Shown piece by piece: positions 6,001 through 9,000 of a stretch of DNA of 38,530 nucleotides (position 1 is its first letter; every line of letters begins with the position of its first letter). Location of the stretch: contig CAYMUG010000001.1 in NCBI GenBank assembly GCA_964393575.1, forward strand, positions 39,803 through 78,332, given 5' to 3'. The position numbers were made by a program. Origin of the DNA: an uncultured Candidatus Saccharibacteria bacterium (GTDB lineage: Bacteria > Patescibacteriota > Minisyncoccia > Spechtbacterales > 2-12-FULL-38-22).

Positions 6001-9000
6001 CGGAAAGCTCGTAATCCAAACGTTCTCCGATCTGTTTTTGCTTTTCATCTTCAGGATTGGGCATTTGTCCGGCAATGGGCTTATTTAGATCAGAAATTTT
6101 AGAGCCGTCTATGCCGTATCTCTTATTTAAACCGTCAATGCATAATTTTGTAAGGTATTCATCAGCGTTTTGGTATTCCTTGGGTACTTCAAAGTGGGGT
6201 AGCTGATATTCTCCGAGGTTGATCTCAATATTGCACTTTTCTTTTATTTTTTGTGTGTTTTCAATGGCTTCGGGATAATCTTTGAACTCTTTTACCATTT
6301 TTTTCGGGGGTTTTACCGAAAAATCCTCATCTTTTAGGGATAGGCGATTTTCGTCATCTACCTGGTTACCTGTTTGTATTGCAAGCAGAACATCGTGAGC
6401 ATCCGCATCTTCGGGACGTGTGTAGTGTGAGTCCTGTGTTGCTACAACCGGCGTGTTTGTTTCTTTAGATAGTTGATATAATTTTTCATTAACAGTTTTT
6501 TGTTCCTCCAAATTAGGGTGGGATTGCATCTCAAGATAGAAATTGTTTTCTCCGAATATTTCTTTGTATTCACGGATAACTTTCTTTGCTTTCTCTGTAT
6601 TATTGTTTTGTATTAGTTGCGGTATTTCTGCACCGAGGCAGCCGCTTAAAGCAATTAATCCCTCGGAATGTTCACGGAGAAGATTTCTGTCGAAGCGGGG
6701 TTTATAGTAAAATCCTTCCAGGTGAGCTTTTGTGGTCAGCGCTATCAAGTTTTTGTATCCGGTGTTGTTTTTTGCAAGAAGAATTAGATGGTAGTATCGC
6801 TTGTCATCAGCTTCTGTTCCTTTTACGTGCATATTGGTAGTTGTATATCCTTCCAGCCCTATGATCGGTTTTATATCGCGTTTTTTGGCTGCCTTGTAAA
6901 ATTCAATTGCTCCGTACAAGTTTCCGTGGTCGGTTATGGCTATTGAATCCATATTCTTTTCTTTAACGTAATCCAAAAGTTCGTCTATTTTACTGAGACC
7001 ATCAAGCAACGAATAGTGAGTATGTACATGCAGGTGTGTGAAGTCCGGGGTTTTTTGAGATTGTGTAGTTCTCTGCGATGACATTTTTGAAACAATTGAT
7101 TTAATAGATGATCGGCTAAAATTTTAATAAGTTGATTATATTATACTCTAAAAAAATTTTTTTTAAAAATTTTAAAGTTACAAATTACAAATACATAAGA
7201 ATGCCTGCCTGCCGGCAGGCAGGCAACACAAATAACAATATTCAAATCAAAAATTACAAACTGTTTGATTATTGAGATTTTGAATTTGTTTGTTTCTTGT
7301 ATCTTGGTTATTGGTTATTATGAGAGTATGGCTATAGATTTTCAATATGAGTCCAAACTTAAAACTCAGTACGGCTACAAAATCATAGCCGGTGTTGATG
7401 AGGTGGGGCGCGGACCTCTTGCCGGGCCCGTAACCGCAGGTGCTTTTATATTTTTAAAAAAACCTGTTTATAAGGAGTTAGAATTACTGCGTGATTCAAA
7501 ACTGTTGAGCGCGAAACAACGTGGCGAACTTTTGCAGGTTTTTTGCGAATGGAAGAGACAAGGTCTTTGTGATTTTGCTACATATTCAGCATATTCCACA
7601 ACGATAGATAAAAGCCAAATTCACAGGGCATCGGTGTATGCTATGCGAAAAGCATTGAATAAATTACAAAATAACCCCGACTTTGTTGCGGTAGATAAAT
7701 TCCTTTATTATAGAAAAATATTTAACAGTATAAATTTTGAAACCATCAAAGGGGCAGACAATTTAGTGCCGAGTTGTGCGGCGGCTAGCATTGTGGCAAA
7801 GGTGCGAAGAGACAAAACAATGATTAATTACCACAAAAAATATCCTGAGTACCGATTTGATCTGCACAAGGGGTATGGCACAAAGCTGCACAGAGAGATG
7901 ATAAAAAAGTACGGGCCTTGCAAAATACACAGAAATAGTTTTAAATTGGAGTAGTTCCCCACAAAAAAGGAGGAGGATATGGAAACGATGATGATATTGA
8001 TAGGGTTGGGTATTTTAGTTCTTTTATTTTCTCTTGGTGTTGCTGCTGTTTTTATTGCCATCGCTTTTCTTGGTAGATCCGAGGATATAATTGAAATTTT
8101 GCGCAGCAGGTGCGAATGTACCTGTAGTGATGAGTGTGACTGTTGTTCGGATTCCGAATGTGATTGCGATTGCGAATGCTGTCAAAGCGAATGCAGTTGT
8201 GGTTGCGAGTGTTGTTAAAACAGATATTGGTACATTTTTGGCATCAACACAAAGGAGTGGAATGTGGAATTCATCATCAGTCTATTCATTGTGTTATTTG
8301 TTATGTTAACCCTGGCTTTTTTAGTTTTAATGGCATCGCAGGGCGGAGCGAGCAGTAGGTATAAGTGTAGATGCAACGACTGTGATTGTGAATGTTGTCA
8401 AAACAATAGATAATCATTAAACCCCGCATTAGCGGGGTTTTGTTTTTTGCAAACTTGCAAAAATTTGTGTTATTGTGTATAGTATATAAGTTGAAATAAT
8501 TCGCTTGCGCTCATTATTTCAAGAATCAAGAATGACGAATCAAGAATCAAGCGCGGCGCGAAACGCCGTATGAATGCGTCGCTCGTTTCGCCGAGCGAGC
8601 AAGGCGAGAAGGCGCACGACCTTTAATTCATAATTCTTTATTCTTAATTCTGATTTGCGCAGCAAATCATTGGTATGGCTGTCCCAAAGCAACGTAAAAC
8701 AAAATCACGCCAAGGCAATCGACGAGGACACATCAAATTAGAAGAGGTGAAGTTAAACGCGTGCCCTAAGTGCGGTAAAAAAGTTAGAGCTCATACTATA
8801 TGTTTGAATTGTGGTACATACAAAGGTAAAGAGGTTGTTGATGTGTTAAAGAAGCTGGAGAAAAGAGAAAGGAAACAAAAAGAAAAAGAACTTGAAGAGC
8901 AAAAAGAGCAGACAGGAGAAATGAGTATGGAAGAAATGAGTAAAAAATAACTTTTAACTTATAACTTACGACAGATGACATTTGACCGTCAATTGTTGAA

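Follow-up and report, generated by a model that had tools for sequence, protein, structure and literature searches.

Tandem candidate genes for membrane-anchored peptides with cysteine- and acid-rich tails between rnhB and rpmF of a Spechtbacterales genome

Introduction

The rnhB gene of an uncultured Candidatus Saccharibacteria bacterium (GTDB lineage Bacteria; Patescibacteriota; Minisyncoccia; Spechtbacterales; 2-12-FULL-38-22; GenBank assembly GCA_964393575.1) is followed by two very short open reading frames (ORFs), here named pep1 and pep2, each of which reads as one long hydrophobic helix and a tail densely packed with Cys and acidic residues. The locus raises the question of whether these ORFs are genes at all and, if so, on which side of the membrane their tails lie and what they would do there. 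In order to answer it, we analysed 38,530 nucleotides (nt) of contig CAYMUG010000001.1 (positions 39,803 to 78,332, forward strand), hereafter the window, whose own numbering is used for all coordinates unless another contig is named. The source genome, of soil metagenome origin, has a size of 0.78 Mb and a GC content of 41%, and is 92% complete.

An earlier note on this DNA had likened the two products to a membrane-tethered metallothionein or a metal/Fe-S chaperone. Our results suggest that pep1 and pep2 are most likely real genes and most likely tandem paralogues. The reading that we favour overall, whose chance we place just short of even, is that of membrane-tethered cytoplasmic metal-thiolate microproteins made from these genes.

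Results

Both ORFs lie on the forward strand after rnhB, adjacent to each other and ahead of one common terminator, as the earlier note had described. pep1 (7979–8218, ATG start, TAA stop) would encode 79 residues; pep2 (8264–8413, GTG start, TAA stop) would encode 49. In pep1 the region of residues 1–44 reads METMMILIGLGILVLLFSLGVAAVFIAIAFLGRSEDIIEILRSR and is followed by the tail CECTCSDECDCCSDSECDCDCECCQSECSCGCECC. Its N-terminus (residues 1–4, MET with Glu2) leads into a transmembrane (TM) helix at residues 5–31 (7991–8071), then a charged amphipathic linker, RSEDIIEILRSR, at residues 32–44 (8072–8110), and finally the Cys/acid tail at residues 45–79 (8111–8215). A recount of this tail gave 16 Cys in 35 residues (46%), the figure reported before, together with 11 Asp/Glu, 5 Ser, 1 Thr, 1 Gln and 1 Gly. 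The Cys spacings are solely CxC, CC and CxxxC, aromatic and hydrophobic residues are lacking, and the net charge is about -11. pep2 has the N-terminus ME, a TM helix at residues 3–24 (8270–8335), the linker SQGGASSRY and the tail KCRCNDCDCECCQNNR (8363–8410), with 6 Cys in 16 residues (38%). Thus both peptides have a Met-Glu start, a hydrophobic stretch of about 22–27 residues and three Arg/Lys after the helix, and both tails are built almost wholly from Cys, Asp, Glu, Ser, Thr, Gln and Asn.

Chance does not account for such a composition. Of the codons in the long ORFs of the genome, 0.59% encode Cys, and among its 6450 ORFs of at least 30 codons pep1 has the highest Cys density, while pep2 shares second place with ORFs that, apart from it, are off-frame noise. 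Of the small intergenic ORFs that have a TM-like segment, only pep1 and pep2 combine a Shine-Dalgarno (SD)-like motif with a Cys-rich tail. On another contig of the same genome (C3, 27409–27501, plus strand), we also observed a 30-codon ORF, MPKLQQGRYPNLFQLKCGCCNGLNCCPLNC, with 6 Cys in its final 14 residues.

We then considered on which side of the membrane the tails would lie. In both peptides the count of Lys and Arg is 0 ahead of the helix and 3 within the 15 residues past it. By the positive-inside rule, basic residues flank a helix on its cytoplasmic side; this count of 0 versus 3 therefore predicts an outside N-terminus and a cytoplasmic tail. The N-termini are acidic (Glu2; MET and MEF), without Lys or Arg, and a lipobox is absent; because of this acidic N-terminus, a Sec signal or a type II anchor fits poorly. 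Neither peptide showed the features of Sec export or of a lipoprotein, namely a positive n-region, a core and an AxA or lipobox site. The cytoplasmic tail that the earlier note had read from the Arg residues just after the helix thus holds up as the better topology prediction, and we regard this orientation (N-terminus out, C-terminus in) as reasonably likely. Structure prediction, which the earlier note had proposed as a check, was informative for the helix and not for the tail: single-sequence AlphaFold2 placed a helix over residues 2–43 of pep1, with a predicted local distance difference test (pLDDT) score above 90 for residues 1–30, whereas the tail scored below 50, which we read as disorder, and the mean pLDDT was 65.

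Alternatively, the tails might face outward, as surface-anchored segments that are disulfide cross-linked by a DsbA-like oxidase or that capture metal or host-surface cations, with a role in the envelope, in adhesion or in scavenging. Three findings favour such an arrangement and weigh against a cytoplasmic tail. The genome encodes a membrane-anchored (type II), outward-facing DsbA-like oxidoreductase with a CPFC site (DSBA, 67.6 bits); the Cys counts of both peptides are even (16 and 6); and the one analogue that we recovered, P0095, carries basic residues ahead of its helix, which predicts an outside tail. In addition, the proton-motive force can carry acidic segments across membranes, as in the coat proteins of Pf3 and M13. 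However, the 0 versus 3 count in both peptides argues the other way, and neither a signal nor a type II anchor would be expected to have an acidic N-terminus that lacks an n-region. A polyanionic tail of 35–48 residues would have to cross without a Sec signal, and CxC/CC arrays packed this closely, with no loops between them, lend themselves poorly to intramolecular disulfide knots. Furthermore, no VKOR that could recycle DsbA was found, DsbB not having been searched for. Taken together, these points make outward tails rather improbable.

The DsbA-like gene belongs to a cluster of three on contig C15 (about 12037–13917; locus L049, 477–2641), which encodes a DoxX-family membrane protein, the DsbA-like protein and a 185-residue protein with several TM segments, a GCAACG motif and no Pfam match. 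The last of these could be the missing DsbB/VKOR-like partner.

P0095 (L089, 136–399), a metagenomic protein encoded by a free-standing gene, was the sole match of the profile search, at a non-significant E=1.1, and lies on a 539-nt contig (European Nucleotide Archive (ENA) ERZ28593742). It has 87 residues or, more likely, 82 when started from a second ATG that follows GGAGG, and its contig has an extended -10 promoter-like site of its own, TGgTATACT, and a terminator. A basic N-terminus with five Lys/Arg precedes its one TM helix, which is followed by EYRCDYDCEDYLDECDECDCDCDCECCADD; the tail holds ECDECDCDCDCECC and ends in ECDECDCDCDCECCADDSDIEIEEAAEEAAE. P0095 has in common with pep1 and pep2 a single TM helix that leads into an acidic Cys tail, which in P0095 includes CDCDCDCECC. 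Unlike them, it has the opposite predicted topology and a long Glu/Ala-rich end. The likeness is probably convergent, and by analogy it lends weak support to the idea that a TM helix with a Cys-acid tail does something.

Next we asked whether pep1 and pep2 are genes. An SD-like element, AGGAGGAGG (7968–7976), precedes pep1, with AGGAGG at 7968–7973 and GGAGG from -10, and AGGAG (8253–8257; GGAG from -10) precedes pep2. The GGAG cores of both thus begin 10 nt ahead of the start codons. In this genome the SD-like peak is GGAGG at -12 to -9, so that the spacing in pep1 and pep2 equals its mode, and AGGAG occurs 50 times at -20 to -4 of the long ORFs as against 2 times further upstream. The strong SD sequences claimed in the earlier note are therefore present at the spacing that the genome prefers, but they lack a pairing basis: the 16S rRNA 3' end (14280–14320), the sole such motif in the genome, reads ...GGTGGAACCATTTACTTAAG and has no CCTCC. 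Since this anti-SD is missing, the argument rests on empirical enrichment and not on pairing; by that enrichment, the motif does mark gene starts in this genome.

Comparison of the two products gave a second line of evidence, and the sole comparative one. BLASTP with composition adjustment aligned pep1 and pep2 collinearly (E=2e-5), from the helix via R-x-[RK]-C-x-C to the shared block DCDCECCQ (8162–8185 in pep1 and 8378–8401 in pep2). In 20000 shuffles of the two tails, no 8-mer was ever shared. Within the block, 4 of 24 nt differ between the copies, all of them at third positions and synonymous (TGC/TGT or GAT/GAC), with a probability of about 0.007 that all four would hit third positions by chance. 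Purifying selection on the reading frame in both copies would produce such a pattern. For the hydrophobic part of pep1, the codon score ranked at the 85th percentile among true coding pieces of hydrophobic character, and only 4–5% of spurious open hydrophobic frames scored higher. On these grounds translation of both peptides seems quite likely.

Against this stands the possibility that the ORFs are chance open frames over TGYGAN hexamer-periodic DNA, or over a structured RNA of the rnhB 3' untranslated region, and several results count in its favour and against real genes. The codon score of pep2 was borderline: it ranked at the 11th percentile among true pieces, and 9% of spurious frames scored above it. 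A collection of 15 billion proteins contains rnhB of this 80-kb contig but neither of the two peptides, whose ORFs the gene callers have evidently skipped. None of the sequencing runs holding the region was an RNA run. With zero homologues, there is no cross-species sign of selection, and (TGYGAN)n arrays in other Patescibacteria are non-coding microsatellites or antisense to (Ser-Gln)n. Finally, the RNA encoding the pep1 tail (8140–8205) folds into a long G-U-rich hairpin, UUGCGAUUGCGAAUGC pairing with GCAGUUGUGGUUGCGA, with a minimum free energy of -43.5 kcal/mol and z=-3.3 against shuffles, and Tandem Repeats Finder detects a 6-nt period at 8150–8179.

That period comprises just five imperfect copies, however. 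The tail is no pure repeat, since Thr, Ser, Gln and Gly interrupt its pattern while the frame stays unbroken, and the region has no match in Rfam. Chance frames would also have to account for a helix-plus-tail layout that recurs in both ORFs, each of which has a start codon and AGGAG at -10, for block differences that are all synonymous, for collinear similarity spanning the non-repetitive helices, and for the gene-like codon usage of pep1. We therefore consider non-coding DNA quite improbable as the explanation. The hairpin itself probably results from the hexamer periodicity, although it could have an influence on translation or on the stability of the mRNA. In the runs holding the region the sequence was identical throughout, so that no polymorphisms were available.

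In order to establish how isolated the two peptides are, we searched for homologues widely. None was found with pep1 or with a pep1+pep2 profile in a word-indexed search of 5.8 billion protein clusters, with pep1 by phmmer against 1.84 billion representatives, among viral contigs, phages and plasmids, or with back-translated peptides and the DCDCECCQ pattern in metagenomes of the Joint Genome Institute (JGI). Eight JGI matches to the pattern were checked, all except three of them (L055–L057) by opening the locus, and were due to chance: the zinc motif of a tRNA-guanine transglycosylase (Tgt), an off-frame NifB-like 'VTVTVNAV', or no ORF. In the one metagenomic Tgt, DCDCECCQ sits at what we take to be the position of the zinc-binding CxCxxC motif. 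PDB sequences gave no match below E=0.13, and Pfam, NCBIfam (both at E<=1), PHROGs and PADLOC gave no family match, in line with the earlier note, which could not assign the peptides to a known family.

The earlier note had also proposed a survey of relatives for ORFs that combine a TM helix with (C-x-C)n; about 800 Patescibacteria genomes yielded no homologue. In 400 genomes of the class, C[DE]C[DE]CC had eight matches, all off-frame or within larger genes. In 400 genomes of the phylum, (C-acid)3-C was positive in five, as microsatellites, as the antisense of (Ser-Gln)n, or as two short soluble ORFs of uncertain status. These two ORFs (L092, 1408–1548, plus strand, in G440; L095, 1468–1599, minus strand, in G696) have no TM helix; they contain the stretches CCDCDCDCDCG and ECECDCDCQ, in which the codons vary synonymously. 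Each may encode a small soluble peptide of Cys and Asp, or may lie open by chance opposite another ORF. On the evidence of these searches, pep1 and pep2 are true orphans, confined to one genome.

We further examined whether the tails might bind metal. With 38–46% Cys in CxC/CC motifs, predicted disorder and no aromatic residues, they carry what by sequence is the compositional signature of metallothioneins, and their regular alternation with carboxylates is, by analogy, that of phytochelatins. The artificial, ribosomally made peptide EC20, (Glu-Cys)20-Gly, is reported to chelate Cd, Hg, Zn, Pb, Cu and Ni on bacterial membranes (PMC4611968). Other points in favour are the place of DCDCECCQ in the Tgt mentioned above, the similar designs of P0095 and of the FeoB_associated proteins described below, and the failure to find a P1B ATPase or a CDF (cation diffusion facilitator). 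For metal binding by the tails of pep1 and pep2, we put the chances at even. Two observations speak against such a function. No metal-related neighbour, sensor or transporter gives the locus a context, its flanking genes being housekeeping genes, and the lack of Lys/Arg in the tail with a net charge of -11 is unlike known metallothioneins.

The genome also limits what a metal-binding tail could work with. Its only P-type ATPase is of the P2 type (Cation_ATPase_N and _C domains), no P1B ATPase or CDF was found in the 92%-complete genome, and there is no true FeoB, FeoB_N matching only positions 2–47 of a 363-residue ORF of GTPase size. Because none of these transporters was found, hand-off to a known pump is ruled out, and with it the role of a chaperone for a P1B pump or of a Feo partner. 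That sequestration might serve as a stand-alone defence here, where the search for heavy-metal efflux pumps came up empty, is speculation.

The helices rather than the tails might be the working part. Many bacterial single-pass microproteins act through their helix, and pep1 and pep2 could resemble type I toxins, modulate a membrane protein or sense the thiol/redox state, with the Cys tail as a reservoir of thiols or a redox switch instead of a metal store. The helices of the tandem paralogues could pair, and 16 thiols would form a large local pool in so Cys-poor a genome. However, it is the Cys block and not the helix that is conserved between the paralogues, no antisense RNA or antitoxin features were seen, and no partner gene lies nearby; we find this explanation very unlikely.

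That the peptides are precursors of ribosomally synthesized and post-translationally modified peptides (RiPPs), such as ranthipeptide-type Cys-to-Asp/Glu/Thr thioethers, is barely credible: the tail residues do match the set cross-linked in ranthipeptides and QhpC (Cys, Asp, Glu, Ser, Thr, Gln) and precursor genes often come in tandem copies, but a TM helix is not the usual leader, no maturase, protease or exporter lies nearby (the earlier note had already seen no radical-SAM or other maturase there), and a radical-SAM thioether RiPP (ranthipeptide or sactipeptide) was rejected because the genome has no radical SAM/SPASM maturase, with no match to Radical_SAM (PF04055) in the 92%-complete sequence as against 14 of 14 control genomes. 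The missing Radical_SAM domain also implies the loss of usual RNA-modification enzymes such as RlmN and MiaB.

Known systems with a similar design were then compared. The closest known architecture is that of PF12669 (FeoB_associated). Its tiny members, which combine an N-terminal helix with a tail rich in Cys, are encoded 3' of feoB or as a fusion to it; those 3' of feoB occur in Firmicutes and Bacteroidetes. Iron binding has been proposed for them, their translation and function are still unproven, and their Cys motif is Cx3-5Cx2-3Cx6-8C, with about 4 Cys (PMC8749426). Like these proteins, pep1 and pep2 are very small, begin almost directly with a helix, carry basic residues behind it and end in a Cys-rich tail. 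In contrast, their tails hold 6–16 Cys in CxC/CC/CxxxC arrays with acidic residues, and their neighbours are rnhB and rpmF, with no feoB. The PF12669 hidden Markov model (HMM) matched neither peptide at E<=1 nor, at E<=0.01, any part of the genome translated in six frames; of 301 genomes of the class, not one exceeded the membership cut-off of 27 bits. With no HMM match, a different Cys motif and no feoB, membership of this family was rejected.

Metallothioneins (SmtA/BmtA, MymT of Mycobacterium, and those of fungi and animals) share with the two tails their Cys density, CxC/CC motifs, lack of aromatics and disorder in the metal-free state, and the pep1 tail (35 residues, 16 Cys) is comparable in size with one metallothionein domain. 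In composition, pep1 and pep2 agree with the broad operational sense of a metallothionein as a small protein with at least about 15–30% Cys in CxC/CC/CxxC motifs and few or no aromatic residues, the Cys blocks having no aromatics at all; that sense further calls for several metal ions bound in thiolate clusters. They differ in being membrane-anchored, in having no His and no Lys and a net charge near -11, and in lacking a metal-regulated context; membership of the bacterial SmtA/BmtA type was rejected, as neither Pfam nor NCBIfam gave a match at E<=1.

With phytochelatins and EC20, the tails share the alternation of carboxylate and thiol residues. Natural phytochelatins are gamma-linked and made enzymatically from glutathione, whereas the tails of pep1 and pep2 would be natural, DNA-encoded alpha-peptides fused to a membrane helix of their own; compared with EC20, their repeat is irregular (Asp, Glu, Ser, Thr, Gln and CC pairs). 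A phytochelatin proper, (gamma-Glu-Cys)n-Gly made by phytochelatin synthase, was therefore set aside, the acid-Cys alternation being all that is in common.

Finally, we examined how the two ORFs are embedded in the window. rnhB (RNase HII; 7331–7954, plus strand; Pfam RNase_HII, E=1.1e-35) is the first gene of the apparent transcription unit. A terminator-like hairpin followed by a T-run begins 5 nt past the pep2 stop codon (8419–8440; the whole terminator is assigned to 8419–8447), with a 9-bp stem of 6 GC pairs, a 4-nt loop and then TGTTTTTT. No terminator was predicted in the intervals between rnhB and pep1 or between pep1 and pep2. Since the sole terminator follows pep2, rnhB, pep1 and pep2 look like one transcription unit.

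In same-family relatives rnhB is followed by rpmF, nusB and rnc, which is also the order here, except that pep1 and pep2 sit between rnhB and rpmF. The nearest RNase HII in the 5.8 billion clusters is 62% identical. pep1 and pep2 were sought 3' of rnhB in eight relatives and were absent from all of them; the gap between rnhB and rpmF measures 76–82 nt in two relatives (G007 and G002) and about 155–210 nt in two metagenomic contigs, the range for these relatives being 76–212 nt. Because rnhB of the relatives adjoins rpmF without pep1 and pep2, the 720 nt at 7955–8674 (pep1, pep2, the terminator and a long rpmF leader, plus strand) are, as far as comparison of the sequences can tell, a lineage-specific insert. 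Its GC content equals that of the flanks, and no insertion scars or notable flanking repeats were found around it; an origin from foreign DNA was rejected on the same grounds. The paralogy of the two ORFs, this insertion and the architecture shared with PF12669 are additions to what the earlier note had described.

Other small ORFs occupy the same place elsewhere. One metagenomic contig (L045; ENA ERZ27256991, k141_875816), whose RNase HII is 62% identical, has a gap of 565 nt with a different, uncalled 92-residue ORF (2700–2978, plus strand) of repeated GLxFG/GFxFG glycine-zipper-like membrane segments; in another contig rnhB is followed by a Cys-containing protein of 235–262 residues; and relative G005 has a small membrane ORF of 43 residues at the junction (L023, 2199–2330). 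The rnhB-rpmF junction thus seems, from these examples, to take up small lineage-specific membrane ORFs repeatedly. In sequencing run X3, a 151-nt contig overlapping 7916–7956 carries the rnhB 3' end of a soil relative, with 3 differences in 41 nt. An unrelated sequence, GCTTGCAATTAGGAGGAAGGAGAAGTAATG, follows rnhB there and consists of an SD and an ATG, so that another small gene may lie at this site.

Discussion

In summary, the earlier interpretation as a whole was partly supported, and the metallothionein/metal-chaperone reading of the sequence is a best guess. On the reading that we favour, pep1 and pep2 would have arisen or inserted between rnhB and rpmF in this lineage and been tandemly duplicated, and they would be transcribed by read-through from rnhB as far as the common terminator. 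Their products would be single-pass membrane microproteins, with an N-terminus of 2–4 residues outside and the tail in the reducing cytoplasm, where it would form an unstructured polyanion in which Cys alternates with Asp, Glu or Ser. Such a tail might bind soft or borderline metals (Zn, Cu(I), Cd and possibly Fe(II)) as thiolate clusters and so act as a buffer or sink for metal on the inner side of the membrane. This would amount to a membrane-tethered metallothionein, chemically nearest to a gene-encoded phytochelatin, (Glu/Asp-Cys)n.

A bolder version can be formulated, which we consider unlikely. The two peptides would be a natural ribosomal, membrane-tethered analogue of phytochelatin, produced by hexamer expansion and tandem duplication in one Spechtbacterales lineage and serving as the main heavy-metal sink of the cell; together with P0095 they would then represent a recurrent, convergent class of membrane-anchored metal-thiolate microproteins in ultra-small bacteria.

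As it stands, the find is a modest curiosity of extreme composition. It has a practical side, in that gene callers miss ORFs such as pep1 and pep2. If the tails bind metal, each gene would encode a counterpart of phytochelatin or metallothionein that is anchored in the membrane; our literature search found no natural bacterial example of such a design, the artificial one being the surface display of EC20. The two ORFs would also be an example of repeat expansion and duplication giving rise to new genes for microproteins beside housekeeping genes. Collectively, they would show a possible way for a bacterium with a 0.78-Mb genome, in which no recognisable heavy-metal efflux was found, to cope with metals in soil.

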